Assembly: GCF_964204645.1 (NCBI RefSeq)
Contig: NC_134028.1
Coordinates: 13,439,263-13,503,262 of the forward strand
Direction: 5' to 3'
Source: Tubulanus polymorphus
Lineage: Eukaryota; Animalia; Nemertea
Length of the DNA: 64,000 nt
This document shows, piece after piece, positions 15,442-51,510 of the stretch. The notes under the pieces are model-generated. The model saw only the letters and a program-made list of their open reading frames with translations, did no database searches and was not told the DNA's origin. Position 1 is the stretch's first letter. The number at the start of each line of letters is the position of its first letter. Position numbers and translations under genes: made by a program.

Positions 15442-15778
15442 AGTAATTAGAAGATGGCGTTTTCAGATCAGAGTACTAGAGTACTAGACACCACTCATCA
15501 CAGCTAGGCTCTAGTGAGAACGGACGATTGCTCTGTGACACACATATACAGTGAGTGCGCGTAACAACAACTGCGCGTGGATAGATCGATACAGTGAGTC
15601 TCTACTGAGAACGGTTATTAACGCGTGTGTTATTACTGTAGTACAGTGATTGCGTGTCAACTGTGCCCAGATAAATAGATGCTGTGAGGCTTGGGTGAGA
15701 ACGGTTAATAGCGTGTTTGTTATATACAGGGGGAAGTAATCCCCACTCATCACCACAAGTAATTTGTTTTCCTTATAA

Positions 15779-16104
15779 ATGGGAGATAGAAAAACATTCT
15801 TAGCAACAATAAATAACAGAATTAAACCAGCAAAAAACAATTTGAAATAAAAAAGTTAGTTGATGTTACAAAAGAAATTGAACATAAAATATTGAAATTA
15901 GAAAAGATAAAAACTAAATATGGAGAGAAAGTATCAGCGAATTTAAGCTACTGTAATGTTAGTACATCGCGAGAATTTAAAGTATTTTTACCTGATAAAT
16001 GGGTTTCATTGAGTACAGAGGAATTAAAAGATTTAGAAGGATTTAAAATAATCTATCATGGAAAAAATGAAGATGGCCATCATGATTTAGAAATTGTTGA
16101 TTAA
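15779..16104 (+). pseudogene. Small Polinton protein (KYG...FLP motif; possibly OB-fold ssDNA-binding)
   Basis: Homologous to 45403..45756. The TAAATG start at 15779 is followed by a premature stop. The OB-fold call is inference. Confidence 0.6.
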
Positions 16105-16264
16105 ATTTAAAAAAAATAAATTAATAAAAATAATGAATATCTGGAATCCGAAATGACTTATCTGGACAATTTAATTGCTCCGCATAGATTGACAAAAGTA
16201 GTGAGATGGTGCTGTATGGCACCCACATTGTGATATTCAATTAATATTCAATTAATTAAAAAAA

Positions 16265-16660
16265 TTATTTTTTTTGCTTTTTTTCTAAAATATTCATCCA
16301 TTTTTTTATTGTCATTTTTGGAATTTCAGAATTATTTTTATTTTTGATAGCAGTTGTTTCAGAATTATTAATATCATGAATTTTATTTGATTTCTTATAC
16401 CAATTACACCCAATCAAAATGAATGCAATTACAAATCCAACTGTAAAATATAAATATTTATCAAATATTCTATTATCAGAAAGAGTAGAAATAACAATAT
16501 TTTCACCATTTTTATTAACATTTTTATTACTTATTTTTTCTTTTACAGCTTTTTTATATTCTTGTGATTTAATTCCTAATTGCCGAGACCATTCAATTTG
16601 TTTCTGTGATCTCGGTTTTTTCTTCACAGTTAAATCCTTCACTTCTTCCACCTCGCTCAT
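16265..16660 (-). CDS. Single-TM basic protein (homolog of 3856..4245)
   Basis: KKKPRSQKQIEWSRQLG motif plus a hydrophobic helix. Confidence 0.7.
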   Translation of the reverse strand: MSEVEEVKDLTVKKKPRSQKQIEWSRQLGIKSQEYKKAVKEKISNKNVNKNGENIVISTLSDNRIFDKYLYFTVGFVIAFILIGCNWYKKSNKIHDINNSETTAIKNKNNSEIPKMTIKKWMNILEKKQKK

Positions 16661-16663
16661 TTA

Positions 16664-17197
16664 TTATAGAAAAATTTTTACTTTAATATTTGAAAATGTT
16701 ATAACCCCAGTTGATAATAATGTCATAAATCCACCTAAGTGAAATGATAAATATCCAATCCATTTATTTAATTCGGTCATAACTAAATAATCATTTTTTA
16801 AATCGGAATATAATCTATTTTCATCTTCAATTGGTAGTATAAAATTACATAATTTACTATAACCTTTTACTACATTTTCTGATATCGCGTCATTAATTCT
16901 AGCTGTTCTCGAGGCTTCATAAGTCTTAAATAATCTAATAATTTCATCTGATTTCATTGTATCTTATTCATTATAAGTTAAATTTTTACCGACAAAATTT
17001 TTACATTTTCCAGATGCTATTAATATTTCTAATTGATGTTTACAGTAAAGTTAATATTCATAATTATTATTTGTTGTAACATTATTTAAAGCACCATCAT
17101 CTGGAATTAATTTGTTTTCTGTTATTCCTAAATCATCTAAAGTTTTTTCAATTGGAACATCACCTTTTTTAGATTTTATTTTCTTTCCACCTACCAT
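16664..17197 (-). pseudogene. Homolog of 4238..4846, interrupted by stops
   Basis: LYSDLKNDYLVMTEL is shared; TAAATG start at 17197. Confidence 0.7.
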
Positions 17198-17227
17198 TTA
17201 TATAACAAAAAAATTAGTTGTGATGTT

Positions 17228-17500
17228 GCAACTAGAATTCAACTAGAACGTAACTAGAATTCAACTAGATTAACAAGCTAGTTGAAATATTGTTGTTTTT
17301 GTTTATATCTTGTTAAATCTAGTTGATTTTTGTTTCAACTACTAACAACTAGAATTCAACTAGAATGTAACTAGAATTAAACTAGATTAACAAGCTAGTT
17401 AAAATATTGTTAAATCTAGTTGATTTTTGTTCCAACTACCAATAACTAGAATTCAACTAGAACGTAACTAGAATTCAACTAGATTAACAAGCTAGTTGAA
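17228..17500 (+). repeat. Intergenic nested repeats (11-bp AACTAGAATTC subunits in three larger blocks)
   Basis: AACTAGAATTCAACTAGAACGTAACTAGAATTCAACTAGATTAACAAGCTAGTT occurs at ~17230, ~17347 and ~17443. Confidence 0.85.
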
Positions 17501-17501
17501 T

Positions 17502-18108
17502 TTAAATAAATTCATATTTAAATGGGTGTTGTAATCTAAATAGTAATTTTGATCTTTTAATATTTTTCAACTTATCCATATATTCATTATGTAAATCATG
17601 TGGAATAATATCATTTTCCTCAAGTGCATTTTTCATCGATTTTCTATCTTTATTGTAGAATAAAACTAGAAATCTAATGTTTTCTCTAAAGTCTTTAACA
17701 ATTGAATTATATTTTTGATTTAAAACCCAAGTTGTTATCCCAAAATGTCTACCAGAAAAAGCTAAATAACATAACTCACTCTCTCTAACTTTTGAATCAT
17801 GTAGATTAGCACAATCATCTATAATGAATAATGTATTTGATCCTTTAAATATCTATTGCTATTTTAATACAATTATCTAAATTTTCTTTTACTGTTTTAG
17901 GATCTAATATAATAAATTTATTATTTCTAGTAATATTTCTATCATAAGTTTGATTAAATTCATATGTTGGACAAAATAATACCATATTATCAAAATAGTT
18001 TTTATAAACAGTTTCTAATAAATTTAATATAAAATAAGTTTTTCCACAATTTGTTACACCAGAAATTAACATATTATGAAGCTCAAATATGAATAATTCC
18101 TTATTCAT
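17502..18108 (-). pseudogene. Packaging ATPase, copy B (premature stop at 17845)
   Basis: GVTNCGKT motif; downstream DNA matches the ATPase of copy A. Confidence 0.85.
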
Positions 18109-19223
18109 TTATATATTTTTAATTTTACTTGATAATATCCATTCATTGAATTTATCTGGCCATCCAACCCATTTTACTAAAGAATATTTTTTTCTTTTAA
18201 TAGTTTTTGTTTTTAATATTTTTTCAATTTTATATTCTTGTTCTAGATTTTCAGTAGTTAAACTCAATTCTTCTTCGTAAAAGTAGCCATCAACTTCTTC
18301 ACCATCTAAATCTTCTAATTTATAGACATATGGTTTTGTTGTTATTACCTTTTTTATTTTATATATTTCCCTAGTAAAATTTCGATCGTATCCTTTGTCA
18401 AATATCTTTTTATACTTAGAAATTCTAACATTTTGACCAACTTTAGGTTCACCAAAATCATCTCCAAGAAATGCTCCATATAAATAATTCCAAACAATTT
18501 CAGCATTTTCAGGTTTTCTAGCATCAATAGGTTTCATTCCAATAGAAGAATGATAAGAATTATTATATCCTTCTATCAATTTTGGTAAAACATCAATCCA
18601 TTTAAAAGTATTATTTGCTGTAAAATATTTCCACATTCTTGTTCTTAATGTTCTATTAAACAACTGCTGCTTTTTTATCCGATTTTGTTGAAAAATATTT
18701 AATATTATGATTATCTAAGAGTTCATGAACAAGTGAATTATCAAACTCTTTTCCATCATCAAATTGTATTTTTTTCTGGTTTTAGTTTATCATCCGAAAG
18801 AAATTTTCTTAAAACATTTGATGTTTGTACAGCATCTTTTCTATAAAGTGGGAAGCTCCATACATAACGACTAAAAATATCAATTATATTCAATAACCAC
18901 CAATAATCATCATTATCTTTCTTAACATTTTTCATATCAATTAAATCTCCTTGCCACTGTTGATCTACATAACTTACCATAGTTTTACGAGTTTTATATT
19001 TTCTAACAATTTTTTTATGTGTTGTGTATGTTGGTTGTTCTAACATAAATTCATTTATATCTTTATATTTAACTAAATTTTGTGGGATAATCTTATCTAA
19101 TCTATCTTGTTTTACTTGACGCCATATATTTTTAGTAGAAGAATAAGCAACCGAACTCTCAGGGTTGTAATATAAATTTCCTAAATATTGTTCTTTAGTA
19201 TTAGGAGTTTTTTTACCACCCAT
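18109..19223 (-). pseudogene. RVE integrase plus chromodomain, copy B (frameshifted, divergent allele)
   Basis: WQGDLIDM, IDIFSRY, FNRTLRTRMW and VKWVGWPDKFNEWI motifs. Confidence 0.9.
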
Positions 19224-19253
19224 TTATATATCCTTAATTTTAACTTTATATTT

Positions 19254-20504
19254 CTAATATTGAATACTATCTAATTGTGAATTTACAATATTTAATTGCG
19301 CGTCAGATATAATATAAATATGCATTTTGAAATTTAGGCTTCCTTTTTTCTTTGTCATGAATAATTGTATTCCATCTTTAGTGTTCTGTAGTTTTTTTCC
19401 AGAACCATGTAATGAATTATCCTCTGTTGTTCTAAAATCTAACCATAATGCATATTTATTGCCGGTATAATAATCAATTTGATTAATATTACAATTTTCA
19501 AATGATTTTACTTTTTCATTCATAAAATGTTTTCTAATTTCTGGCCACTGATCTATCAATCTCATTCCTTGACAAAATATTTTATTTGCTATTCCTTCGA
19601 TAGTTATTTCTACTTTTGTTATTTCAGGATTATAATAATTATCAACCTTTATTGCGCCATTAGAATATGTTGCAATGGTAAAAAATATTAATGTACCTTA
19701 ATAGATCTTCTTGGGAAGTTAATATTCTCATTAATTATTTCATCATTTGCATTAATAGTTACAGTTTTAAATTTATCAATATAATCAATCATATAATAAT
19801 AAAAATCCTTGATTGTATTGAGTTTGAATTGTGCTAGCAATATTTTCATTAGTTACTGTGTCATATTCTAAACATATATTCGATAATTTATAACCCATAT
19901 CTTTAACAACGCTAGATAATACAATTTCATTTACATGAGCAAATGTTATCTCAAATATAATATCTTCTTGAATTGCGTATTTATATAAAGGTGCATTATT
20001 ATTTATCAATTCAAAGTCTAATGGAATTTTATATTTGCTTCCATAAATCTTTTTAATCAAATTATCTGTGGCACGAGTTACTATTGCGTCATTAGCTCCT
20101 GATCTTAATTTATTATGGTTTTCCGATTGAATACCCTGAAATATCATATTATTTCTATTTTCTTTAGTTAACCATAAATCTTTATAATGCATAAATAAAT
20201 TATAATCATCTAATGAGAAAAATGTTTCTGGACCAATCTTTATAGTTAATTTTTTAATCAAATATCTCCCAACATTATCAACAACATAATTATTATCATG
20301 ACCAATAACTTTTATATCAGCTGATAAATAAATACTATTTGGAACATAAAAAGTATTTTGTGTTAATCTAGGAATTCTAACATATAAAGTTTCATCGGGA
20401 TTAATATTTGAAGGATTATGAGTAATTATATGATGTGATCTTTCTGCTTTAATAGCATTAGATATTCTAGAAATCTTAGAAGGACTTATATAACTCCCAC
20501 TCAT
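19254..20504 (-). pseudogene. Major capsid protein, copy B (frameshifted)
   Basis: ORFs 19785..20504 and 19254..19565 together give a ~415-aa beta-rich protein (HNPSNINPDETLYVRIPRL). Confidence 0.75.
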
Positions 20505-20524
20505 TTATTTAACAAAAAAATTAA

Positions 20525-21954
20525 TTATTTATTTTTAATCATATTCACTAACCCAAAAATAATAGCACTTACAACTGTAATTAAAAATAAAATAATATGT
20601 TCAGCAGCAAAGTTAAGAATATTCCCAGCAGATTTCAATATAAAACCAACAATTGATGCAATAACTCCGGGTAAAGCTGCAGCAGATTTTTTAGATAGTT
20701 CCCATAAATATTTTGCTAATTTCTTTAAACCATCTTTAACTTTATCTTGTATAGAATTATCATTCGGGGGTTTATCCGGTTTATTGGGAGTAGGAGTAGA
20801 TTTTAAAGCATTTGATAATGCTAAACCAATTGTTGTAAATAACATAGTTACAGCTGTTAGAATTGAAAGAATTGTTATTCCTTCTAATTTAAATAATAAC
20901 TTTATTCTATCTTTCAATGATATTTCAGAATTTGGTTTTATCAACAAATCTTTAAAAATAACTTTTAATCTATTTATATTATAATCGTATGATTTTAACA
21001 ATAATTTAATTTCTTCTTTTTGTAATTCTATGTTATATTCTAAATCATCAATTTCCTTTTCTAAATATGCATTTCTTTTTTTAAATTCAATTTCTTCAAT
21101 AACTTTATTATCTCTATCTAATTTTAATTGTTCTATTTCTTTATTTTTATCAGTTAATTCTTTTTCTAAAGTTCTAATTTTTAAATCTCTTATACTTTTA
21201 TCATGCGCAATTTTATCAGCTTCATTTCTTATACTAATCATTTCTCTTATTGCTTTATCAGAAAATATATTATTTAAATCTTCTAATTCTTGATCTGTTG
21301 CATCAATTAATCCATTCGGTAAAAGTTTTTCAGTTTGAACTTCACTTGAATTAGGTTTACTAGTTTTGGAATTATCAGCTTCTTTAGTAATTGTTTCTGG
21401 TTCTAAATTTTCATTAATTATCTTAAAAAAATAATCATTTCTTTTTTTAAATTCTCTTATATTAACATCTCTTTCTTCTTGTGTAACATCAGTTATAACA
21501 TCATTAATGATTTTCTTAATTCTATCTGGTTTTAATAAATTAAAAGTTGATTGTGTTATTATTTTATCGAGACTTTTATTAGAAGAAATCTTAAAATAAT
21601 AATCATCTTTCAAATGCCAATAATAATCACCATTTGAATATTTTAAATCTTCTACTAAATAATCCATACCTTTATTTGTTATATTGAAACCAGATTTTCT
21701 TAATATTGGTTTAAAATCACTAGCAATTTCATTATATTTAAATTTTTTTCTATTAATTCTGTTACTTCATTTTCAATACTTATCTTTGAACGTGTTTTAT
21801 CAATAAATTCAGGTGTAGTTAAATTAGAATTACTTCCTGGCTCATTACCGTCATTAAAACTTGTTTCACTAAAATCAGGTTGTTGTTCATCAGTTATGCC
21901 AGGTTCATCAAAATTATCCATTCCAATATCTTCTCCACCTCCTTCTACATCCAT
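20525..21954 (-). pseudogene. Acidic N-terminus / coiled-coil / C-terminal membrane-helix protein
   Basis: 380-aa ORF with a long coiled coil and 2-3 hydrophobic segments. ORF 21700..21954 is its frameshifted N-terminus. Confidence 0.7.
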
Positions 21955-21977
21955 TTATATATTAAAGAAATTAAAAT

Positions 21978-23345
21978 TTAAAATATAATGTTCCTCCTAT
22001 AACAATTCCTATACAAGTTAAAGCTAATTAAGTATTTTCATGGAATTTATTATCATTATCAGTTTTAATTATATCATGTTGAATATTATCAGTTTTAATA
22101 TTTTCTGTAGTATTTTAATCTTTTATTTTAGAATCATTATTTAATTTAATATTCTTAGTTTTAGTTTCTGTTGATTGAATATGTTTTTTATTTTTTTCAC
22201 CTTCCATTAATTTTGGAGCAGTGATAATCTTTTTATTTATATCATTTAATCCAAATGAATTATTTATTGTTGCAGTTTTAATTAGATTATTGTAACCAAT
22301 TATGTTTCCCATCTTTAGTACTAAATCATTAGAAATAATTAATAGATTAGGTCCTATACAATAATTTAATCTAATATGTGCTTTTGATATCTTACAATGT
22401 TTTCTGGAATCGATCTATTTTTATCATTATGAATGGAATCTTCAAATTAAACTTTGAATTGTTTCTGCGCATCGAATGAAGTGTTATCATTTCCAATTAT
22501 TGGGGATCTTGTTTCAACTTGCGCACCTAAAATACATATCAAATAAGTTCTAATAGATTGATTTATTCTTTGTATACCTGATTTTGTAAAACCTTCATTA
22601 TTTTCTAAAATGAAATAAACCCAACCATTATTGTTTTCTTGTTTTAAATTATCATAAAATGTCGGTAATTTATTGAAATTTAATGTTTCAAAATCCTTAG
22701 TTTCTATTTTACCATAACCTAATTTATTACTATAGATATTATACAAACTATTAGATGGTATGGGAAGTGCACAATATTCTGCAATCTTTTTAGGGCAAGG
22801 AAGTGATCTTATTGTTCCCTTTTTGTTCTAAAATCAGAATTATTTATATCTATATTAAATTCATTACAAATGTTATAAAACTTTGATAAATTAATTTTAT
22901 TATCTAATTCTTTAAAATACCTAGATCCTGGTAAAGCGCACTCTAATTCATTTAATATTATTCTGATTTGAAAGTATGTATGAAATCTAAATAAACTTTG
23001 AATTAATTTATATTTAGAATTATTCAAATGATCATTCCAACTAATTCCACATCCTGTTGTTGCACAATAAACAGCAAAATTTAATTGGTTCTGCCAATAC
23101 TTCATATTAGATTTTAATAACCATTGTTTTTCATCTTTCAATTTTTTAAAATTAATTAAATATACATGAAATATATTTTCCATCTTTGCATTAAAATTAT
23201 TAGTTTCAGTAACATAAATTTCTAAATTAGTTAATGAATCTAAAACTTCATTTCTATATGTAATATCTTTATTAAAATATATTGCTGGAATATTATATTT
23301 AATTGATTTATTATATTGGAAAGCTTTTGGAAAACCATCTACCAT
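21978..23345 (-). pseudogene. Conserved Polinton protein (WQNQLNFAVYCATTGCG motif) with C-terminal TM helix, fragmented
   Basis: Three ORF pieces collinear with 41823..43118. Confidence 0.7.
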
Positions 23346-23373
23346 TTATTTAATTAAAAAATTAATAATTTAT

Positions 23374-23796
23374 TTATTCTTTTAATAATTTATCTTGTTC
23401 TTCAACTGTGATATGACCATTTAAACTTATTATATAATCTAATGTATTCTTTAATTTATTAATTTCTTTAATATTAGTTTTAATTTTTTCTTGATTACTT
23501 TTTATATTTAATTTTGAACTTATACCAGTTAAAACACTTGAACTTAATCCTAATACACCAATTGATATAGCTAAAGGTGTTAATGGACTGAATATTGCTA
23601 GAAATGTTATTACAGAACTAATTGTAACCGAACCACTGATAATAAGATAATATATAATTTTACTTTTTAAATATTTTTTCTTTTTCATCTTTAAGTCACT
23701 TTCAAATTCTAATATTTGTTTTTCTAAATATATTTTTAATTTAGTTTTATTTATATCATGAGGAATAATATCAATACTATCAACTTTATCTTCCAT
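23374..23796 (-). CDS. Two-TM-helix protein
   Basis: Two adjacent hydrophobic helices; near-identical to 43135..43569. Confidence 0.75.
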   Translation of the reverse strand: MEDKVDSIDIIPHDINKTKLKIYLEKQILEFESDLKMKKKKYLKSKIIYYLIISGSVTISSVITFLAIFSPLTPLAISIGVLGLSSSVLTGISSKLNIKSNQEKIKTNIKEINKLKNTLDYIISLNGHITVEEQDKLLKE

Positions 23797-23816
23797 TTAT
23801 TTAGAAAAAAAAATTA

Positions 23817-24279
23817 CTAGTTAGTAAATTTATATGCTACAAATATAACAATAACAGTTCCACCTAAAATCCAAATTATTTCATATTTCTGTTGTTCTTT
23901 ACTTGGGGTATAATAATCTGATAATTTAGGTTTGTATAGATGTAATTTTTCTTTCTTGGTTACCGCGTTATATAAACTCATTGCATCATCAACTGATTGA
24001 AAATCTCTATGTGAAATCTTCTGATCATATAATTCCTTGTTAATATAATCCATATAGTTTTGTCGTTTTTCTCTGTATTCTTCTGCTGTTTATTATATTT
24101 CTCTTATGCATAGTTTTATCCGATATATTATAACAAGAATTACATAAACTTATATTTACTAATTTTAAATCAACACAATTCTTAAATTCTCTATCTAATT
24201 GAACTAGTAAATTATGTGATTTATAATTTGTAAGTTTTCTAGAATCAACAAATATTCTGTATTCTTTTAGTTCTACCAT
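23817..24279 (-). pseudogene. Deletion junction: 5' end of the minor capsid gene joined to the 3' part of the 43590..44012 homolog
   Basis: 24279-24115 matches 45385-45220 and 24105-23817 matches 43876-43590, so about 1.35 kb is missing. Confidence 0.8.
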
Positions 24280-24347
24280 TATTTATAACATAAAAAAATT
24301 ACCGCTCATCACTAAAAATTAATTTTAATAAAATTTGTCCTTAATAA

Positions 24348-25664
24348 ATGGATGAGAAGATACCATGCGAAATTTGTGGTGAACTTCTAAGAAAAAGTAA
24401 TATGGCTCGACATATGAAAAAACATGATGAAAATTATAAACCCCCTAAACTAAACTGTCCAAAATGTAATAAATTATTCTCAAGAAATTATGTTAAAAAA
24501 CATTCAGAGAAGTGTAAAATTAATGGTGCAACGGCTAATGTTGATAGTAATGAAAGTAATAGTAATTCTGCTGAAGTTGTACCTGAAATTATTTGGAAAA
24601 GACCTTTCTTATTCTATGATAAGGATAATATAAAAGATCATTTCTGCGAGCCTTGTCGAGTAAAATATAGCCCTGAAATATAGAAGATTGGGAGAATCAT
24701 CAATTTCGTAAAGTACATATAGATAAAATTTCTTATAAATTTGAAACTGAATTCAATGAAAGAAAAATAGTTTATTAGAAAAAATTAAATATGAGAAAAC
24801 GTTAACAGTTGAAAAGTTAGAAAAACAATATAATGAATTAACAAGAAAAACATATTATTGTAAATATTGTAAATTGATTATTACAACAAGTAATTCAAAT
24901 CTACATAATAGAACAATAAAGCATAAAGAAAACGTAAGAAAATACCAAGAGCTTAATGAAGATCTATTACCAATAAATTATAAACGAAAATGCCCACAAT
25001 GTAATTACGCGACCTTAAGACAAGAAGGTACTGTGTTATTTTGTGTTGATTGTGGATGGCAAAGGAATTTATGGGGTGAAGAAAAAACTAGAAATTTTCT
25101 CATAGAACCAAAATTAAATTATCTAGATGAAATTTTTAAAATATTTTCTATAGAAGATCATACACCGGAATATATGCAATGGCTTGAAAAAATGAAAATA
25201 ATAGAAAATAAAAATGGTGAAATAACTAAAAAAGATATTATAAAAACAATTATTCCGTCAACATTTAACACAAAACAAAAGAAAATGTATTTATATTTAT
25301 TATTTAACGATTATTATGATAAAACCTAAATTAACAGAAGAAGATATGGAAAATATAAAAAAAAATATTCAAACAAATATTAATGTATCATTTGGAAAAT
25401 AGAATAACAGATTCAATTAATTATGAATTCTTTTTAAATAAGATTGTAAATTATTTAAACATAGATATTATAATTCCATTTGACGAATTAACAAACAAAA
25501 AGAAACAAAGAGAGCGAGATGAAATGTGGAACATGATAGAACTTTATTTAAATGAGAAAAATGAAATGGAAGAAGAACCTAAACAAATTATACAAGAACA
25601 ATTATATGAAAATGAAGAAGCCAATAGTGATTTCGAGTATGATGATATTGATTTTATGTTTTAA
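24348..25664 (+). pseudogene. C2H2 Zn-finger region followed by a poxvirus A2L/VLTF3-like late transcription factor domain (frameshifted)
   Basis: CPQC-x13-CVDC ribbon, KTRNFLIEPKLNYL, SINYEFFLNKI and RDEMWNMI. These match recalled VLTF3 motifs (CSGC...CIFC, SNFHVSNKLIHL, TINYSFFLDKI, and a terminal W). Confidence 0.72.
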
Positions 25665-29770: not shown

Positions 29771-29857
29771 TTATTGGGAAAAAAAATTACTTGTGGTGAT
29801 GAGTGGTGTTTCGCCCGCTCCCCGCTGATCTGAAAGCCCACTTTCCCAATTACTACT

Positions 29858-33142: not shown

Positions 33143-33197
33143 TCACAGATTATTCAATATAAAAGTGTAAGCTCTTATAGAATAGATATATAGATAG

Positions 33198-34914: not shown

Positions 34915-34920
34915 CTTATT

Positions 34921-37615: not shown

Positions 37616-37784
37616 TTATTATACATTTATTATTTTTTTACTAAATTGATTTTAGAAGTTATTCATTTATATGTTATTCATGAATATATATGAATTATTT
37701 CAATAAAACTTTACTAACACTTTTAATGTTTAAAAATCTAACTCATACAAATATAAATATTGAAATATGTTTAAAATATACCTA

Positions 37785-38145: not shown

Positions 38146-38160
38146 ATTACTTTTTGAGTG

Positions 38161-39069: not shown

Positions 39070-39101
39070 TTATTATATAAATTTTTATTAAAGTTAAAAT
39101 T

Positions 39102-40349: not shown

Positions 40350-40369
40350 TTATTTAACAAAAAAATTAA

Positions 40370-41801
40370 TTATTTATTTTTTATCATGTTTACTAATCCA
40401 AAAATAATAGCACTTACAACTGTAATTAAAAATAAAATAATATGTTCAGCAGCAAAGTTAATAATGTTTCCTGCAGATTTCAATATAAACCAACAATTGA
40501 TGCAATAATTCCTGGTAATGCTGCAGCAGATTTTTTAGATAGTTCCCATAAATATTTTGCTAATTTCTTTAAACCATCCTTAACTTTATCTTGTATAGAA
40601 TTATTATCTGGGGGTTTATCTGGTTTATTTCGAGTAGGAGTAGATTTTAAAGCATTTGATATTGCTAAACCAATTGTTGTAAATAGCATAGTTACAGCTG
40701 TTAGAATTGAAAGAATTGTTATTCCTTCTAATTTAAATAATAACTTTATTCTATCTTTTAATGATTTTTTAGAATCTGGTTTAATCAACAAATCTTTAAA
40801 AACAACTTTTAATCTATTAATATTATAATCATATGATTTTAATAATAATTTAATTTCTTCTTTTTGTAATTCTATGTTATATTCTAAATCATCTTTTTCT
40901 TTTTCTAAATACGCATTTCTTTTTTTAAATTCGATTTCTTCAATAACTTTATTATCTCTATCTAATTTTAAAGTTCTAATTTTTAAATCTCTTATACTTT
41001 TATCATGCGCAATTTTATCAGCTTCATTTCTTATACTAATAATTTCTCTAATTGCTTTATCGGAAAGTATATTATTTAAATCTTCTAATTGTTGATCTGT
41101 TGCATCAAGTAATCCATTTGGTAAAAGTTTTTCAATTGGAACTTTATTTGATTTCAGTTTACTAGCTTTGGAAGTTATATTCTGTTCAGAGTTTCTTTCT
41201 GGTTCTAAATTATTATCGATTGTTTCAAATAATTTATTAATTCTTTGTTTAAATACTCTTTCATTTTTAATAATTTCTTCTTGTGTTACATCTTCTGGTT
41301 CATTACTATTTCTTATTCTTTTAATTCTAGATAGGTCTAACTTAAGCAAAGTTGATTCTGCTAATATTTTTTCTTGTTTTTTATAAGAGATATCAATATA
41401 ATAATCATCTTTCGAACGATAATAATATTCACCATCTAAAAACTTTAATTCTTGTACTAAAAGTCTAGCGCCTCTGTCATTTATATTATATCCAGATTTT
41501 TCAAATATAGGTTTGAAAATTATAAATTTTTAGGTTTTAAATTATAAATATATTCATTATATTCTAAATTTTGTTTTACTAAATCTGGATTTTCATTTTC
41601 AGGAGGTATTCTCGACCTAGTTCTTCTATCAAATTCATCTGTTGATGGGGCTTTAGAACCACTATCTGCTAAATTAGAATTATATGCTGATTCATTACCA
41701 TCATCAATATTAGTTTCTGCATCATTATAATCATCATCAATATATCCTTCATTATTATTTCCCATGCCTTCCATTTCATAATCTTCTCCACCTTCTGCCA
41801 T
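40370..41801 (-). pseudogene. Acidic / coiled-coil / membrane protein, copy C, frameshifted
   Basis: Homologous to 20525..21954. Confidence 0.7.
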
Positions 41802-41822
41802 TTACTTAATAAAAAATTAAAA

Positions 41823-43118
41823 TTAAAAATATAATATTCCTCCGATTACAATTCCTATACAAGTTAAAGCTAATTTAGTATTTTCATGGGATTTATTATC
41901 ATCATTTAGTTTAATTATATCATGTTGAATATTATCAGTTTTAATATTTTCTGATGTATTGTAATCTTTTATTTTAGAATCATTATTTAATTTAATATTA
42001 TTAGTTTTAGTTTCAGTTGATTGAATGTGTTTTTTATTTTTTTCACCTTCCATTAATTTTGGAGCAGTGATAATCTTTTTATTTATATCATTCAATCCAA
42101 ATGAATTATTTATTGTTGCAGTTTTAATTAGATTATTATAACCAATTATATTTCCCATCTTTAATACTAAATCATTAGAAATAATAAATAGATTAGGGCC
42201 TATACAATAATTTAATGTAATATGTGATTTATCTAAATAATTTTGATATCTTACAATGTTTTCTGGAATCGATCTATTTTTATCATTATGAATTAAATCT
42301 TCAAATAATACTTTAAATTGTTTCTGCGCATCGAATGAAGTGTTATCATTTCCAATTATTGGTGATCTTGTTTCAACTTGCGCACCTAGAATACATATCA
42401 AATAACTTCTAATAGATTGATTTATTCTTTGTATACCTGATTTTGTAAAACCTTCACCATTTTCTAAAATGAAATTAACCCAACCATTATTATTATCAAT
42501 TTTATAATTATGATAAGCTCCAATTCTATGAATATAATCAATTCTTTTTATTTCATACTCTTCACCAACACCTTGCAATTTACCATGCGCTCTAAAATCG
42601 GAATTAATATTTATATTAAATTCATTACATATTTTATAAAACTTAGATAGATTAATATTATTATCCAATTCTTTAAAATATTTAGACCCGGGTGAAGGAC
42701 ATTCTAATTAATTTAATATTATTCTGATTTGAAAATATGTGTGAAATCTAAATATTGTGTGAATTAATTTTAAATCAGAATACTTCAAATTTTTATCTAA
42801 GTTATTTAAATGATCATTCCAACTAATTCCACATCCTGTTGTTGCACAATAAACAGCAAAATTTCATTGATTCTGCCAATATTTCATATTAGATTTTACT
42901 TTATATATATGGTATTCATCTCGAGTAAAAGTAACTTCATATGTATTAAATATATTTTCCATTTTAGAAATAAAAAACTGTGATTCAGTAACATAAATTT
43001 CTAAATTAGTTAATGAATTTAAAACTACATTTCTATATGTAATATTTTTCTTAAAATCTATTGTAGGAATATTATATTTAATTGATTTATTATATTGGAA
43101 AGCTTTTGGAAACCCCAT
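41823..43118 (-). pseudogene. Conserved Polinton protein with C-terminal TM helix, copy C
   Basis: ORFs 42864..43118 and 41823..42668; C-terminal LALTCIGIVIGGILYF. Confidence 0.7.
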
Positions 43119-43134
43119 TTATATAATTAAAAAA

Positions 43135-43569
43135 TTAATAATTAACTAATTCTTTTAATAATTTATCTTGTTCTTCAACTGTTATATGACCATTTAAACT
43201 TATTATATAATCTAGTGTATTCTTCAATTTATTAATTTCTTTTATATTAGTTTTAATTTTTTCTTTATTACTTTTTATATTTAATTTTGAACTTATACCA
43301 GTTAAAACACTTGAACTTAATCCTAATACACCAATTGATATAGCTAAAGGTGTTAATGGACTGAATATTGCTAGAAATGTTATTACAGAACTAATTGTAA
43401 CCGAACCACTTATAATCAAATAATATATAATTTTAGATTTTAAATATTTTTTCTTTTTAACTTTTAAGTCACTTTCAAATTCTAATATTTGTTTTTCTAA
43501 ATATGTTTTTAATTTAGTTTTATTTATATCATGAGGAATAATATCAATATTATCAACTTTATCTTCCAT
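43135..43569 (-). CDS. Two-TM-helix protein
   Basis: Intact 144-aa ORF with two hydrophobic helices. Confidence 0.78.
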   Translation of the reverse strand: MEDKVDNIDIIPHDINKTKLKTYLEKQILEFESDLKVKKKKYLKSKIIYYLIISGSVTISSVITFLAIFSPLTPLAISIGVLGLSSSVLTGISSKLNIKSNKEKIKTNIKEINKLKNTLDYIISLNGHITVEEQDKLLKELVNY

Positions 43570-43589
43570 TTATTTAGCAAAAAAAATTA

Positions 43590-44012
43590 CTAATTAGTAA
43601 ATTTATATGCTACAAATATTACAATAACAGTTCCACCTAAAATCCATATTATTTCATATTTCTGTTGTTCTTTACTCGGGGTATAATGATCTGATATTGT
43701 AGGTTTATGTAGATGTAATTTTTCTTTATTTGTTACCGCGTTATATAAACTCATTGCATCATCAACTGATTGAAAATCTCTATGTGAAATCTTCTGATCA
43801 TTTAATTCTTTATTGATGTAATCCATATAGTTTTGTCGTTTTTCTCTATATTCTTCCGCTGCTTTATTATATTTCTCTAATGCTAAGTTATGTCTTTTTT
43901 GTTCTGTTAATGAACCATTTTTATCAATATGCTTGAATAAATAACCACCACCAGTAAATGCTAAAGCGTTAACAATTGCCGATCCTATAATAGTTATAAT
44001 TGCAGAAGCCAT
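43590..44012 (-). CDS. Small protein with hydrophobic N- and C-terminal helices
   Basis: MASAIITIIGSAIVNALAFTGGGYLF...IIWILGGTVIVIFVAY. Confidence 0.78.
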   Translation of the reverse strand: MASAIITIIGSAIVNALAFTGGGYLFKHIDKNGSLTEQKRHNLALEKYNKAAEEYREKRQNYMDYINKELNDQKISHRDFQSVDDAMSLYNAVTNKEKLHLHKPTISDHYTPSKEQQKYEIIWILGGTVIVIFVAYKFTN

Positions 44013-44036
44013 TTATTTAGCAAAATAATTACGCAT

Positions 44037-44258
44037 TTATATGGGAGGAATATATTTTTGTTTTTCCAAATAATCAATAGTTAAATTAGATAAAGTAACT
44101 GCTAACGTTAATTTTAAAATATCATTGATATCAAATCTATCAACATTAACACTTCCCATTTTAAATACTTTTTTTAATACCATTGAATAACCAACAGTTC
44201 CAACTGATAGTAATGCGCCATTATATAATCCAGTTATTATCCACTTATTATCACTCAT
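44037..44258 (-). CDS. Small hydrophobic protein
   Basis: 73 aa, TAAATG start, two hydrophobic or amphipathic segments. Confidence 0.65.
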   Translation of the reverse strand: MSDNKWIITGLYNGALLSVGTVGYSMVLKKVFKMGSVNVDRFDINDILKLTLAVTLSNLTIDYLEKQKYIPPI

Positions 44259-44615
44259 TTATTTATCAAAAAAATTACTATCATCAAAATATTTAGTTAT
44301 CTTATTTATGATTAATTCAACATTTATTTCATTACTAGTTTCATTTGTATATATTTCAATTATTATTTTTTTAATATCATCGATGATAAAATCTTCATCT
44401 AATTCATAAAATCTTAAAGATTCTCTAATTAAATTAGTAATCTTTTCTACATTTAAAGTTTCTTTATCTATTGTTGTTTCATACTCAAATGTTGTTTCAT
44501 TAGAAAATGTAATATTTTTGATATGTGTAATTACATCAGTAATGTTAAATTTCATTTCTTTCTCATGTTTAAAATCAAACCCAAAACATATACTCGGCCC
44601 AACAGTTATATTCAT
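44259..44615 (-). CDS. Hypothetical protein
   Basis: 118-aa ORF with a TAAATG start, packed within the gene block. Confidence 0.6.
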   Translation of the reverse strand: MNITVGPSICFGFDFKHEKEMKFNITDVITHIKNITFSNETTFEYETTIDKETLNVEKITNLIRESLRFYELDEDFIIDDIKKIIIEIYTNETSNEINVELIINKITKYFDDSNFFDK

Positions 44616-44630
44616 TTATATAGTGAAAAA

Positions 44631-45385
44631 TTACTCTTTACATCTTATAACTAATTCATATATCACAGGAAAGTTATTCAAATCAATTAAATAACCATTA
44701 TGATTTCTTATTTCTAATTTAAAATTATTGAAATGTGGAATACAAGGTTTGAAATCACATTCTGTTAAATTATAATTTATTTGAGTTCCAAATTGTTTAA
44801 CATTTTTTAACGGTAAAATATTTAGTATACTAGAACTACAAATTGTTTCTTTAGTTGCTTCGAAAGTTTTTGTAGGCTCGATTAAATTGCAATAAATATA
44901 AAAGTGTGTAAAAGGTAATATATTTGGCGTAGTATCAACATTTGAATAAATTCATTTGGATTAACTCCTAGCATTTTAGCTAATGGTTTTCTTACTATGA
45001 ATTTATATTGTTCATTAGTTAACTTTATTCTTATTTTATTAGTACTATTGATTTTATTAAATTTAATGTTAAACCCAACAGATTCACCCACTTTTAACCG
45101 AGCTCTTCTATTAATTTCTTGTGCTAATGTATCTAAATTGTATAATCCTGGTCTTAGAAATAGATGATATTATTTATCCATATTTCTATCATGAATCATA
45201 AACAATCTATGATCAAAACTTTTATCCGATATATTATAAAAAGAATTACATAAACTTATATTAACTAATTTTAAATCTACACAATTCTTAAATTCTCTAT
45301 CTAATTGTACAAGTAAATTATGAGATTTATAACTAGTAAGTTTTCTTGAATCAACAAATATTCTGTATTCCTTTAATTCCGCCAT
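44631..45385 (-). pseudogene. Minor capsid protein (penton, single jelly-roll), fragmented
   Basis: IFVDSR, SFYNIS, RPGLYNLDTL, YIYCNLIE and EIRNHNGYLIDLNNFPVIYEL, a pattern typical of Polinton/PLV minor capsid proteins. Confidence 0.75.
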
Positions 45386-45402
45386 TTATTTTACATATTT
45401 TC

Positions 45403-45756
45403 TTATTCGAAATCTATTTCATGGTGCCCCTTTTCATTCTTACCTTTGTATACGAAATAGAAATCTCCAGAACATAATTCTTCTAAGTCTTCACTTGATA
45501 ATCTATGAAATCTATCCGGTAAATATGTTCTGAATTTATACGTATTTCCTTTTAATCCTTCATATTCTAAGTGTATAACTAATCTATCTCCATATTTGTT
45601 AGTAACTCTATCAATATTTGTAATTAGACATTTCTTATAGATTATTAATTCTTTTAACTTCTTAAATTTATAATCTACTGATTTGACATTTGAAATATCT
45701 TTTATTCTATCTAGAAATGATTTGTTGTTCTCACTGTGCGCTTGTTTACTCTCCAT
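45403..45756 (-). CDS. Small Polinton protein (possibly OB-fold ssDNA-binding)
   Basis: Intact 117 aa with TNKYGDRLVIHL...YLPDRF; homologs at 15779 and 47867. Confidence 0.7.
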   Translation of the reverse strand: MESKQAHSENNKSFLDRIKDISNVKSVDYKFKKLKELIIYKKCLITNIDRVTNKYGDRLVIHLEYEGLKGNTYKFRTYLPDRFHRLSSEDLEELCSGDFYFVYKGKNEKGHHEIDFE

Positions 45757-45785
45757 TTTAATAACATATTTTTATTAAAATTTGA

Positions 45786-46082
45786 TTAACACGTTAGAAT
45801 TCTTTTCATTATCTCGTTCTCTTTTGTTTCTTCTCTTTTAAATTTTAAGTATTCATCTAAATTACAACCATAAGCAACTGTATGAATTCCATCATCTAAA
45901 ATATATCTTTTATCATCCAATGGGTTTAGACTTATCTTTTCAATTTCTTCAATAAATATTTCATGATCTTCAGATCTTAAACATCTCATCTTATGTTTTC
46001 TAACTTCTTCATTGAATATACAATTGATGTAATCTTTGAAATGAATATTCTTTTCTACTACACTTTTGGTTATTCCTTTGAT
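45786..46082 (-). pseudogene. polB: pPolB C-terminal remnant abutting the right TIR
   Basis: KGITKSVVEKNIHF...SLNPLDDKRYILDDGIHT. Upstream sequence is TIR. Confidence 0.88.
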
Positions 46083-46089
46083 GAAATCT

Positions 46090-46425
46090 TCAAAACTATA
46101 ATATATTTTCATAACCGTGTGTATTTCAGTTGAATAATAGAATAATTATTATTATTTGAATATATTTGATTATATGAATTTGTGTATTGTAAATAAATCA
46201 ATTGGTCGCGGAGCGGAGCGGTAGCGAAGTGGAGCGACCAATTGATTTAATACAATATGCTTTTAAAATTTAAATTATTAATATCTTAGAATAAATATTT
46301 AGTTATAATATGAAATACACACGGTTATGAAAATATATTATAGTTTTAAATTACTCTTAATGTTTTGTTTTTTAATGAGCTCGACCGTTCGACCTTTGGC
46401 CTGAAAGCCCATTACCCCTATTACT
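46090..46425. repeat. Right TIR of copy C (inner arm truncated by the pPolB deletion)
   Basis: Matches 7188-7515. Confidence 0.9.
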
Positions 46426-47020
46426 AATATTGAATCTGATCTTTGTACCATTACAGTACAATGTTACGTAGCACTGTTCATTTGCTACCTCGGTGCTATT
46501 CACTGAACCGACAAAGAGTTCATCTTCCGATGCATTACTATTTTCCTCAGTCTCAACTCTCTGTACTTCCCTTCTGCGACATACTTTACGAAAATGTCCT
46601 ATCCCCTTGCATTTAAGACATTCTTTGCCATATGCTGGACACTGGCGTTTCCCGTGACGTGTCCCGCATTTTCCGCAGTTGAAAATGTCAGATCTCGTTT
46701 GCTGCTTCGCCGACGCCAGCTTATGCGTACCTGAACGCCGCTCTCGTGTCTTCGGTTTTTCCCTTGTTGACTGCTTGAACCTCTGACAATGTTCCGCCTG
46801 CCTCGAAAGAAATATCTTTTACTTGTTTCAATGGCAGTTCATTTGCTCGGCATATTGTGACTGCCTTTCCGAGAGTTAGATCTACTTCTCGCAACAGTCT
46901 CTCTTTTACTCTTTCGTTATCATATCCGCATACTATTCTGTCGCGCACAAGTTCATAGTAAAATGCACCAAAATCACAGTTCTTGGCTATCAAAAGTAGC
47001 TCGGTGACATACTGATCAAT

Positions 47021-47318
47021 CATCCTCCCCCGGCAGGGATTCGAACCTGATGGCATCGAGATTGCCACGGCACGAAACCCTGCCATAATCGACCGTGTGC
47101 GCAGATACATGCGCGGTTCAAATCCCGGGTATTCCCATTTATAGGTCTTCCTGGAAATTTGCCTCAACGATTATACAACGAGCAATCTGATTGGTGCTGC
47201 CAGTTTTCGTTCGGAAAGCTGCGCATGTACCTGCGCGCCCGGTCTACTGATGCAGGGGTTCGTGCCGTGGCTGAGTGTAACGATGCCATCAGGTTCGAGT
47301 CCCTGCAGAAGAAGGATG
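47021..47318. mobile_element. 298-bp MITE-like palindromic insertion in gag
   Basis: ~100-bp imperfect inverted arms CATCCT.../...AGGATG. Removing it restores gag ...KSDES|IDQYVTEL. Confidence 0.8.
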
Positions 47319-47713
47319 ACTTTCGTCTGATTTCTTCTTGCGAGTGTTGAATTTATACTTCTCCACTGTAACGTTTTTACGTGGTTCGCAATAGTCATCG
47401 AAAGCTTTCAGCACTGCGACTATTCTGTTGCTATCCGCTACCGACAATTGCAACGTATTGTATATGTCCCTACCTTCTTGACCTATGATATACAGGAATG
47501 CTGAACATTTCTCTGCATCTGTCTTGTCTTTCATCACTAGGTCTAGGTATAGTCTCATGGACTGCTTCCACTTTTTCCATCTCTCCGAGAGGTTTTCATC
47601 GGAGAAATTTAGTTCACACGGCGGTTTTAAATGTTCCTTTCTACTGACTTTTATAGTCTTCCAAACATCTATTTACCCCGTACCGGCCTTGTCTGGTATT
47701 TACAGGTTCGGTA

Positions 47714-47724
47714 CGCTGCCACCA
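47714..47724 (-). promoter_or_regulatory. Primer-binding site TGGTGGCAGCG (probably tRNA-Leu)
   Basis: Directly follows the LTR on the minus strand and is complementary to a ...CGCTGCCACCA tRNA 3' end. Confidence 0.75.
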
Positions 47725-47866
47725 TGTAACATAACGAACAAGTAACACACCATTAACTTGATTCTAGTTTTTTATTTCACTTCTTACTACAGTCTACGTG
47801 GCAGCCATTATCTTACACCACTAGATGGCAGCACTAGCTGGTTATATTCGATCATCTACTGTTACA
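47725..47866 (-). repeat. Gypsy 5' LTR (142 bp)
   Basis: TGTAACA...TGTTACA termini, minus-strand AATAAA and adjacent PBS. No second LTR was seen in the window. Confidence 0.85.
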
Positions 47867-50800
47867 GTTACTAACAAATATGGAGATAAATTAGTTATCC
47901 ACTTACAATATGAAGGATTAAAAGGAAATAAATGTAAATTCAGAACATATTTACCAGATAGATTTCATAGATTATCAAGTGAAGATTTAGAAGAATTATG
48001 TTCTGGTGATTTCTATTTCATATATGAGGGTAAGAATGAAAAAGGGCACCATGAAATAGATTTCGAATAAAATATGTAAAATCAATTTTAATAAAAAAAT
48101 GGATATTAAAATGGAAGCAAATAAGTACTACTGTTCAACATGTAAAATTGATATAGATAAATCTCAAAAAGCAAGACATAATAAAACTAAAACACATTTA
48201 GAGAATAAATTGAAATTAGAATATAAAGATGATATATTAGAAACTAAATTAGATGGAACATACAAATGTGACACATGTAATCAATCATTCAGTGAAAAAT
48301 GATATTATGAATAACATTTAAAATCTAAAAGTCATATTAGAAATATGAATAATGATATTTTAGGTGAACATTATTTTGATAATAATAATAATAAACCGAA
48401 GACAATTAAAAGAATAAAAGATACTCTAAATAATGAGAAATCATATATGGAAAATGTTAGAAATTATATTAATTCATTAGATAATAAAAAGGAAATAGAA
48501 ATAACCGAAGCATTCAAAAGTGATATTGGTCCAGCAGTTATCGAGTTTAAATTTCATAAAGGAAAAACATTAGAAGAAAATAAAAAACATTTAGAAAATA
48601 TGAAAAATATTATAAAAATAATAAAAGATGTTGAAAACCTTAAAATTAGTATATCTTCTAAAGTTAAATTTATAAAATCTGAAGATAAACCAATATATAA
48701 TATAAATTCTCATTCACAAAATATTATTTCAAAACAACATATAGATGATAAATTAGATAAATGTTATAATGAAGTAAAAACTAAAATAGAAGAGAAAGAT
48801 TTTGAAGGATCTGGTTTAATATTTGATGAAATAATATTAATGACTTTACATGTTTATACCACAAAATATAATAAGTTAACTAAATCAAAACCAATTGATG
48901 AAAATAATTTATCATATTATGAAGATGATAGTATAAATGGATCAAGTTATATCAAACTACCATTTAAAACAAATGCTGTTATAAATGTACAAAATTTTGA
49001 TGATAAATGTTTTCTATGGACAATTATAAGTTGCTTACATCCAACAAAAGATATTACACATACTTTTAGATTAACCAATTATAAACCATTTGACAATAAT
49101 TATAAGATAGATAATTACCTTTATACCTATCAAAATATTATGATTCAAATGATGTAATAGATATATCATATTATGAGAATCATTATATGTGGATTAAACA
49201 AATCGATTTATTTTTTAGAAGAGAAAATAACCACAATAAAATATATCTACGTAGAAAATGTTTACATATATTCAGTAATGAAAGTACATTATTAAATAAT
49301 AAACAATTATGTGAAAATCATGATTATTGTAAAATAGTTTTACCAAATGAAAAGGATAAAATATTAGAATTCAAAAAATATGATTACAAGAATAAAGTAC
49401 CATTTGTTATATATAGAGATTTTGAATCATTAAATAAAGAATTAACTAATCAAGATGGAACAGAAATTTATCATAAAAGAAAGAAATTAAATTCTAATAA
49501 AAATGATATAATTGATTATTCAAAATCCTCTAATAACAAATACTATTAAAAAGATTCATCAATCAGCTGCAGCTTTTGGATTATATATTAAATCTGATTA
49601 TCCAGAACTAATCAAAAGTGAGTATAATTATTACAGAAATGAAAATGTTATCAATCATTTTTGTGACTTATTAATTGAGTATGAAATAAAATTTAGTAAA
49701 CTATTAGATACAAATATAGAAATTATAATGAGAGAAGAAGATAAAGAAGCATTTGAGTTTGCAGATAAATGTTATTATTGTGAAAAGATATTTAATCTAA
49801 AAGACAAAAAAGTAAGAGACCATGATCATTTGAATGGAAAGTTTAGAGGTGCAGCGCATGAGAATTGTAACTTACAAGCTAAGAAAATTAACTTTGTTCC
49901 AGTAATATTTAATAATTTATCAGGATATGACGCACATTTATTTATCAAACAGCTATGTCATAAAATAGAAAGATTAAATTCAAATAGATTAAAAAATAAA
50001 ATACCAACTTATAAATTTAAAATGTTAGCTAAAACATCTGAGAATTATATATCATTCCAATTTGGGTGTCTAAGATTTATAGATTCATATAGATTTTTAG
50101 GTAGTTCATTAGATAACTTATCAAAATCATTAGTTGATGATGAATTAAGAATATTAAAACAACACTATCCAAATAATGATGATTTTCAATTAATGAGATA
50201 TAAAGGCGCAATACCATATTCATTTTATAAATCACATAATGATTTCAACATTACTGAATTATTAAAAGAACAATTCTATGATGAATTAAAAAATGAATAT
50301 GTTAAAGATGAAGTATATAATAGAACATTGAATATTTGGAATCATTTTGGAATGAAAAATCATGGACAATTAGTAGATTTATATTTAAAATCAGATGTAT
50401 TATTATTATCGGATATATTCGAAAGGTTTAGAGATGTAAATTGTAGCATGATAGCAACAGAATAGTCGCAGTGCTAATTGTAAGATGTTATTCATCACCA
50501 GGATTAACTTGGGATTGTGGTTTAAAATTTACAGATATAAAAATGGATTTGTTTACAAATATAGATCAAGTATTATTATTTGAAAAATCTATAAGAGGAG
50601 GAGTTTCAGGTGTATTAGGTGATATATATTTCAATGTAAATGATAATCCTGGATATAAGTTATTATATATAGATGCAAATAATCTATATGGTTGGGCAAT
50701 GATGGAACCACAACCTTATGGATTATTTGAAATAAGTGAAGTTTTACAACATGAAAATAATGATAAATTCGATTGGAAGAAAAGAATCCTAGATATTGCA

Positions 50801-51510
50801 GATGATTCAGATACTGGTTACTCCTTTGTTGTAGACTTGGAATATCCTGAACATATCAAATTTAAATCTAGAAATCTAGCATACTGTCCAGAACATAAAA
50901 CTGTGACACATAATGAATTATCAAATTATCAAAAAAGAATTAAACCCGAAAATCATATTCATACAGAAAAGTTAATGCTAACTCAGGAAGATAAATATAA
51001 TTATGTAGTACATTATAGAATGTTAAAGTTTTATCTAAAACAAGGAATGATCCTTAAAAAAAGTACATAGATATATTTCATTTAGTCAATCTAAATGGTT
51101 AGAAAAATATATAGATTTCAACACCAAATAGAGAACTAAAGCTAAAACTGATTTCGAAAAAGATTTCTTCAAGTTAATGAATAATGCATTCTATGGAAAA
51201 ACTTGTGAAAATATAAGAAATAGAAATGATATTGAGTTAGTCAGTAATGGTAAAAGAATTATACATTTACAAACATATCCTAAATTTATGGGTAACAGAA
51301 TATCTGATGAAAATTTAGCTGCAGTTAAAAGGAGGAGAACTTCTATGAAATTTAATAAACCAATTTATGTTGGAGCTACAGTTTTAGAATTATCAAAGTT
51401 ATTAATGTATGAATTCTATTATAACATATTACAACCTCATTTTGGAGAAAAACATATAGAAATCTTATATTTTGATACTGACAGTTACATATTAAAGATA
51501 ATAAAGTGAT
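47867..51510 (+). mobile_element. Polinton copy D fragment
   Basis: The 3' half of the small KYG gene (cut by the LTR), followed by pPolB truncated after motif C. Confidence 0.88.
48111..51509 (+). pseudogene. polB: pPolB, copy D, intein-free, fragmented
   Basis: N-terminal Zn fingers, EGSG...GSSYIKLP...INVQNFDDKCFLW, VRDHDH, NLSGYDAH, YIDANNLYGWAM, MNNAFYGK and YFDTDS. Confidence 0.92.

Follow-up and report, generated by a model that had tools for sequence, protein, structure and literature searches.

Nested remnants of Polinton-like viruses in the genome of Tubulanus polymorphus carry start-site motifs resembling poxvirus late promoters

Endogenous virophages with promoters matched to those of a helper virus are established in protists, and the Polintons of animals are usually treated as nuclear elements. 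The locus studied here raises the question which RNA polymerase reads such an animal element. It lies in a stretch of 64,000 nucleotides (the window) of the genome of the nemertean Tubulanus polymorphus (assembly GCF_964204645.1, contig NC_134028.1, forward-strand positions 13,439,263 to 13,503,262; coordinates below count from the first letter of the window). Self-comparison and translation revealed four pieces of one Polinton-like virus (PLV) family, broken and nested, which are called C, A, B and D (our own lettering, not that of an earlier first-pass annotation of this DNA). The family possesses several of the attributes by which Mavericks/Polintons are recognized: pPolB, an rve integrase, an A32 ATPase, a double jelly-roll capsid, terminal inverted repeats (TIRs) and, in B, a 6-bp duplication. 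The pieces are decayed copies from a clade of PLVs whose genes are probably transcribed in the cytoplasm, where a co-infecting large DNA virus would supply the RNA polymerase.

A poxvirus-like motif at the start codons

The first-pass annotation had described the elements as AT-rich and tightly packed, with genes that start at TAAATG or TAAAATG. This description holds: the GC content (1-kb bins) was 0.21-0.27 inside the elements versus 0.33-0.41 in the flanks, and gaps between open reading frames (ORFs) were mostly below 110 nt in intact relatives. TAAATG was present at 28 of the 34 window starts defined by homology, versus 49 of 912 other ATGs on the coding strand (p = 1.7e-27), and TAAAATG at 3 further starts. 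Across the intact relatives found in metagenomes, GC-rich ones included, TAAATG was present at 57 of 67 starts, i.e. 31/35 versus 29/505 other ATGs in loci L001-L005 and 26/32 versus 8/399 in L006-L014 and L017. It was seen at none of the 8 starts of L015 and L016, an outgroup of two contigs only. The degraded and distant loci L018-L022 were excluded from these counts.

The conserved signal is longer than the hexamer. Of the 79 TAAATGs that are true starts, 73 have a T at position -12, versus 54 of the 151 that are not starts (p = 7e-18; both p values are overstated because orthologous starts are not independent). A T at -3, where the animal Kozak sequence has a purine, was present in 79 of 89 starts. 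An origin of the T-run as a terminator leftover was ruled out by the T at -12 in all 18 hand-picked starts without a close upstream gene on the same strand. In L003, L009, L010, L011 and L013 back-to-back TAAATG starts were observed 19-35 nt apart, each with its T at -12.

According to the excerpts consulted, to which this and all later citations refer, late promoters of vaccinia virus carry TAAATG across the initiation codon and, at the 10th nucleotide upstream, a conserved T; its intermediate promoters combine TAAA with AT-rich sequence 15-19 nt upstream (PMC11980589; see also PMC5294985); the viral polymerase itself reads the TAAA initiator (PMC12917281). The T of the elements is 9 nt upstream of the first base of TAAAT, within one base of this wording. 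Vaccinia and the elements have in common TAAAT(G) over the start codon, a T-rich core with a short spacer and, possibly, an A-rich variant; here, however, these occur on an integrating element of ~15-18 kb without a polymerase, and the likeness is one of sequence. No description of such promoters on Polintons was met among the papers listed in searches of the open-access literature (subscription journals and supplements not covered).

Two promoter classes had also been proposed. A motif of the type TT(T/A)AATAAAA occurred at 11 of 17 replication or regulatory starts, 1 of 44 structural starts and 0 of 28 other starts, which agrees with that proposal; the division is nevertheless suggestive only, because the classes were assigned after the sequences had been viewed and the rows include orthologues. 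The promoter of a VLTF3-like gene in A belongs to the A-rich, intermediate-like type.

If TAAATG served translation, or arose from tight packing and AT bias, it would be no promoter; this alternative is in keeping with the 22-25% GC and the short gaps of the elements, and was nonetheless considered the least probable of all explanations weighed. AT bias was ruled out by loci of 41% GC, which keep TAAATG at 9 of 11 starts versus 0 of 106 internal ATGs; conversely, giant-virus DNA of 22% GC has it at only 1 of 25 starts. Stop-start overlap was ruled out as well, the TAA being the upstream stop in only 1/31 and 0/26 starts of the relatives; in the window it doubles as stop at 1 of five junctions tabulated. 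Besides, the T at -12 stays fixed in divergent promoters. The excess of TAAATG over the AT-matched and stop-start background, which had been named as a check, thus survived.

Nuclear or cytoplasmic transcription

Pfam detected no RNA polymerase family among the 69 ORF pieces of the window, and a motif search for RNA polymerase was negative in the window, L001, L003, L005 and the Polinton-like contig L102. Dependence on a helper is likely, because nearly every start has a signal of the form of a poxvirus late promoter and no RNA polymerase gene was detected. Motif depletion was measured against codon-shuffled controls. AATAAA, the poly(A) signal of the host, was not depleted in the coding strands of close relatives (135 versus 136 expected, 5.7 per kb), of mid-distance relatives (20 versus 25) or in the window ORFs (43 versus 46). 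TTTTTNT was depleted in all three (9 versus 22.7, 3 versus 13.1 and 5 versus 10.9, respectively) and not in iridovirus-type loci (59 versus 64).

An autonomous nuclear Polinton or PLV, in which host RNA polymerase II (Pol II) reads a private compact promoter resembling that of poxviruses, perhaps with a VLTF3-like factor, would suit the integrase with its chromodomain, the 6-bp duplication, and distant relatives that form clusters of 135-136 members, those listed including contigs as long as 1 Mb. The CpG depletion of the mid-distance relatives (z -7.9) also suggests time spent in nuclei. This explanation is unlikely, however, given AATAAA about every 175 nt in the coding strands without depletion, the T at -3, a motif that overlaps the ATG and so leaves almost no templated 5' leader, and no TBP-like family among the scanned ORFs. 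It is very unlikely that the clade as a whole is a relic, i.e. formerly helper-dependent and now a hitch-hiking transposon whose inherited promoters are unused in this host lineage. It is true that all four window copies are broken and lie nested, together with a Gypsy element, next to a satellite array; the relatives, however, have intact ORFs and keep the motif over ~50% capsid divergence. Therefore selection is ongoing somewhere, and the relic explanation may be true for this host only. A shade less probable again is a helper that is no large virus at all, namely a pPolB element similar to pGKL2 of yeast, resident in the cytoplasm and encoding an RNA polymerase of its own. We know of no pGKL2-like element in animals. 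The yeast virus-like elements have a pox-related polymerase, and a TAAAN initiator from which poly(A) leaders arise (PMC6211774), but their required upstream ATNTGA box was not evident by eye in the aligned upstream regions, and the polymerase motif was lacking in the five sequences named above.

Anatomy of the window

The copies in the window are fossils. The features of the locus are given below as coordinates, strand and description.

1..7515, both strands: element C, partial and rearranged
within 1..7515, +: C, remnant of the major capsid protein; zinc-finger ORF
within 1..7515, -: C, ATPase, integrase, transmembrane (TM) protein, orf202, HNH gene, N-terminal stub of pPolB
5098-5763: C, intact copy of the HNH gene
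7112..7515: C, palindromic end with AGTAAT arm, GC-rich central stem and inverted arm; ~200-bp hairpin fold
15442..29857: element A, AGTAAT/AGTAGT termini, short imperfect TIRs with an inward TAAATG in each
15778..16101, +: A, small ORF, broken, homologous to B 45406-45756 and 73% to L001; presumably SSB-like, the label being our guess
16268..19223, -: A, integrase with chromodomain, A32 ATPase, orf202-like gene, TM protein; all but the TM protein broken
19257..20504, -: A, major capsid protein, broken; predicted double jelly-roll fold in an intact relative
20528..24279, -: A, structural block with coiled-coil/TM protein, orf442, small TM proteins and candidate minor capsid remnant; promoters of T-run plus TAAATG
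24348..25661, +: A, zinc-finger/VLTF3-like gene, broken; A-rich (intermediate-like) TAAATG promoter
25664..29770, -: A, pPolB, broken; start at the TAAATG within the right TIR
26119..27180, -: A, intein with LAGLIDADG domain at the YxD/TDS site of pPolB, limits approximate
29858..47854, -: Gypsy long terminal repeat (LTR) retrotransposon with reverse transcriptase, RNase H and rve; contains B
32761..46425, -: element B, in the Gypsy protease region, all genes on this strand, pPolB mostly deleted
32761..33107: B, palindromic left end
36999..37615, -: B, HNH endonuclease-like gene, broken
39105..40349, -: B, major capsid protein, broken
40379..45756, -: B, structural block up to candidate minor capsid and SSB-like ORF; starts TAAATG or TAAAATG
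46089..46425: B, palindromic right end, inner arm truncated
47855..51510, +: element D, remnant; SSB-like tail and intein-free pPolB, broken and truncated

Pfam identified pPolB (PF03175, E 1e-18), the rve integrase (PF00665, E 1e-8) and the A32 ATPase (PF04665, E 4e-12), and gave a weak match of the capsid to Capsid_N of nucleocytoplasmic large DNA viruses. Other components of the family are the chromodomain on the integrase, the HNH gene, zinc-finger ORFs and small membrane proteins. The candidate minor capsid gave a single-sequence model too poor to use (pLDDT 39), whose weak matches include several minor capsids. A Ulp1/adenain protease was found neither in Pfam scans of the 69 window ORF pieces and 32 ORFs of relatives nor in a crude motif scan, no complete element being among these sequences. 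All three copies with a capsid gene have it broken, and in each of the four copies pPolB is either broken or mostly lost to deletion. The suggestion that the elements might act as an inducible antiviral system is therefore unsupported for these copies.

Element A showed neither a hairpin nor a target-site duplication, and its right end lies within the Gypsy 3' region. The Gypsy element has one LTR of ~130 bp (47725-47854), adjoining D. B is flanked by the 6-bp duplication AATATA/AATATT, with one mismatch. The order of nesting appeared to be D, then Gypsy, then B and the right end of A, i.e. repeated insertion at one spot beside the satellite. The latter is a 31-bp repeat of ~170 copies (54411-61098), with a 155-bp repeat array at 54871-55530. 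A host segment of ~1 kb is present in two copies (89%), at 7508-8553 after the end of C and at 14380-15441 before A, and the former displays the empty site of A. Smaller repeats were seen in C (453-bp tandem duplication at an inversion junction, 1428-2350), in a non-coding gap of A (11-bp CAACTAGAATT repeats, 17229-17497) and in a zinc-finger ORF of B (24-bp in-frame repeat, 38722-38878). Sequences near 52.9-53.2 kb were taken to be LINE-like remnants; together with the Gypsy element and the satellite they point to an animal host.

Relatives and capsid phylogeny

A metagenome scan yielded 22 loci related to the element family; scans of IMG/VR yielded no members of the clade. L001 (11.5 kb) is a largely intact, near-collinear counterpart of A, and a deoxynucleoside kinase is present in L001 and L007. 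Homologs of the capsid numbered 50 among 251 candidates, mostly of 414-419 aa, and 890 at E <= 0.001 in a 50%-cluster library. The modelled capsid of an intact relative (pLDDT 82) is predicted to be a double jelly-roll that best matches the capsids of iridovirus and PBCV-1, at 9-14% identity; in the comparison of the 415-aa capsid model those of mavirus and Sputnik rank 42-46, behind them. In a FastTree capsid tree of 100 rows, from which homologs below 385 or above 460 aa and identical rows were left out, every TAAATG locus fell in one clade (SH 97-99) and L015 outside it. L015 and L016, the nearest relatives without TAAATG, showed depletion of AATAAA (5 versus 9.9) and of CpG (z -6), in a small sample hinting at a nuclear sister lineage. 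A further related lineage is formed by the clusters P0207 (intein-bearing pPolB, 136 members) and P0062 (capsid, 135 members), which has contigs of up to 1 Mb and many full-length members among those listed. This suggests a recent burst in some host. The 9,034-bp viral contig L102 is a different Polinton-like element with an A32 ATPase, a pPolB-like ORF (40% to P0206) and a 503-aa ORF with rve and chromo domains, the N-terminus of which looks protease-like by eye. It has TAAATG at 7 of 7 ORF starts and T at -12 in 4 of 7, and is possibly a second lineage using a similar promoter.

VLTF3-like gene, HNH gene and hairpin ends

Three further features had been noted in the first-pass annotation. 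With respect to VLTF3, the C-terminal piece alone of the gene in A gave a Pfam match (E 9e-5), at 22.7 bits below the cut-off of 25 bits; against giant-virus VLTF3 this piece gave E 0.002. The resemblance thus stands, but it is weak and the gene is broken. As for an element supplying its own late factor, which had been assigned to B, only the element at 15442-29857 (A here) qualifies, with the broken gene; B as lettered here has none. VLTF3 has already been reported in coral polintoviruses (PMC11131425).

The HNH gene had been called giant-virus-type. It does show 34% identity to a protein of a giant-virus bin (1 of 3 records), but also ~30% to phage proteins (78 records), and was rejected as a giant-virus marker. 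Hairpin termini of 350-400 nt are real in C (z -25.3), and equal structures occur at the ends of B, but the left end of A has none (z -0.6); as a family-wide trait they were rejected, being present in two copies only. The terminal palindromes (7112-7515, 32761-33107 and 46089-46425) show the same C-to-T differences between their arms in C and B, hence fixed G:T mismatches, which may be characteristic of the family or stem from old methylation decay. Perhaps, speculatively, the hairpins serve priming beside protein priming.

Identity of the helper

The proposed helper most likely has post-replicative promoters of the poxvirus type. That it is pox-like or another member of the Pokkesviricetes is quite possible; an iridovirus or some other large virus, the two about alike, are improbable helpers. 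The full promoter shape fits the poxvirus description better than the iridovirus-type one, and TAAATG alone names no poxvirus. Of the first-pass proposal of a poxvirus-like helper, the dependence on a large virus in the cytoplasm is well supported by the sequence signals, but the poxvirus is not the sole candidate.

Several observations weigh against cytoplasmic dependence on a poxvirus-like helper. No helper genome was found in the scans. The vaccinia match was made to a sequence logo as described in a publication and not to poxvirus DNA. Iridovirus-type loci, pooled from four of 14 relatives (L149, L150, L154 and L160), have TAAATG at 29 of 80 starts versus 43 of 1067 internal ATGs; the initiator is therefore not pox-specific. 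The nearest non-Polinton carriers of the intein are Pol-delta-like and not poxviral (2 of 2 checked). TTTTTNT is mildly depleted in giant-virus loci too (47 versus 63, z -2.5), and the Gypsy control (AATAAA 3 versus 1.6) is too small to show avoidance. A search for VLTF3 homologs was empty. To these are added the CpG depletion, the sub-threshold VLTF3 score, the non-independent starts and the small outgroup described above.

These loci are relatives of an invertebrate-iridovirus-type genome, its family label deduced from MSV199, DUF5757 and DUF5770, that surfaced in a blind IMG/VR scan for back-to-back TAAATG promoters. T at -12 occurred in 12 of 29 TAAATG starts of the iridovirus-type loci versus 72 of 78 in the present clade; A at -5 and T at -6 are fixed there instead. 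Their start motif is AxxTTAATAAATG, with 28 of the 29 starts reading AATAAATG. The excerpts of two iridovirus reviews do not describe this motif as a promoter, although 3'-terminal TAATG/CATTA hairpins are mentioned in one of them. Iridovirus-like particles are known in marine invertebrates (PMC5923455).

The polymerase intein claimed earlier was confirmed at the YxD/TDS site of the pPolB of A, with D as the empty allele. Its best matches are in related pPolBs (43-62%), followed by RNA-primed PolBs of giant-virus type (up to 42%). Shared possession of the intein would imply shared compartments. As evidence for a poxvirus it was rejected, in view of its Pol-delta-like carriers. Since AT-rich giant-virus loci related to these carriers have TAAATG at only 7 of 78 starts, the intein would record contact with giant viruses and not the source of the promoters. 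The blind IMG/VR scan gave at least 120 stretches, 80 of them with flanks; the matches listed include no poxvirus record, and L102 and L029 are the only ones among them in which TAAATG stands at most starts. A scan with the deoxynucleoside kinase gave one giant-virus-like locus (37%) with few TAAATG starts and no lead to a helper. In the annotation of a fish poxvirus many core genes are listed with TAAATG (PMC4542343). Marine sediments are the source of basal branches of the egoviruses, and polintons of Parabasalia acquired a gene from egoviruses (bioRxiv 10.1101/2024.03.23.586382).

With such a helper, transcription could proceed as follows. The integrated copies would be silent to host Pol II. 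Once helper DNA replication begins, the helper polymerase would read the A-rich, intermediate-like promoters of the pPolB, SSB-like, VLTF3-like, zinc-finger and HNH genes. The T-rich, late-like promoters would subsequently drive the capsid and membrane genes, possibly helped by the VLTF3-like factor of the element itself; the A2L gene of vaccinia is an intermediate gene required for late transcription, according to a title in the reference list of PMC11980589. Finally, pPolB would replicate the genome, the A32 ATPase package it and the integrase re-insert it. A bolder version is rather doubtful: a widespread animal-integrating clade of virophages, with its own late factor and a two-step cascade on the polymerase of helpers that would form an undiscovered lineage of poxvirus-like viruses in (probably aquatic) invertebrates. 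Intact copies elsewhere in such genomes would be inherited, inducible anti-poxvirus agents, the animal counterpart of the endogenous mavirus-like elements (EMALEs) of Cafeteria.

Comparison with known systems

Adintoviruses and animal Mavericks (PMC8502044; bioRxiv 10.64898/2026.06.19.733378) have in common with the present family pPolB, the rve integrase, the A32 ATPase and capsids, as well as TIRs starting with AGTA and the 6-bp duplication. Unlike them, the family has no detected protease, a weak Capsid_N match, poxvirus-shaped promoters, an intein and, in relatives, a deoxynucleoside kinase. The Capsid_N match is compatible with PLVs (Aquintoviricetes). By published description, the most likely placement would be among animal PLVs outside the Maverick groups, and the likeliest home the animal-derived Aquintovirus-like elements of Octocorallia, Hydrozoa and Bivalvia (bioRxiv 10.64898/2026.06.19.733378). 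As far as excerpted, that work places these elements by ATPase trees, in two sentences, as the only animal Polintons/PLVs outside the Maverick groups, and the word 'promoter' is absent from it. The PLVs associated with entomopoxviruses (Barth et al., PMC11296320) are alike in being small animal PLVs linked to poxviruses; some carry PolB, and a beetle genome harbours one related, integrated element. Compared by description, all four differ from the present family in having an adenovirus-type protease, and instead of an rve integrase the two with PolB have no detected integrase and the others a tyrosine recombinase. Their description has no promoter analysis, and neither 'promoter' nor 'motif' appears as a word in its main text. 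Virophages in the strict sense (Maveriviricetes) have a virophage-type capsid and protease, which were not found here.

If the proposed dependence on a helper is true, the provirophage lifestyle extends to animals, and an unsampled helper virus is predicted in the hosts. TAAATG with T at -12 and no avoidance of AATAAA would moreover offer a sequence test that sorts Polinton families into nuclear and helper-dependent ones. Mavirus and the EMALEs (PMC10945749) likewise combine an rve integrase with PolB, harbour retrotransposon insertions, and persist as silent integrated copies carrying the late promoter motif of their helper, as the present copies are likely silent. They differ in their protist host and in their helper, CroV, with its TCTA motif; reactivation and protection have been shown there, whereas the present elements are known from their DNA. 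On the best reading, the lifestyle of the clade would by analogy most resemble that of mavirus and the EMALEs, with integrated and probably silent copies that the polymerase of a helper reads.

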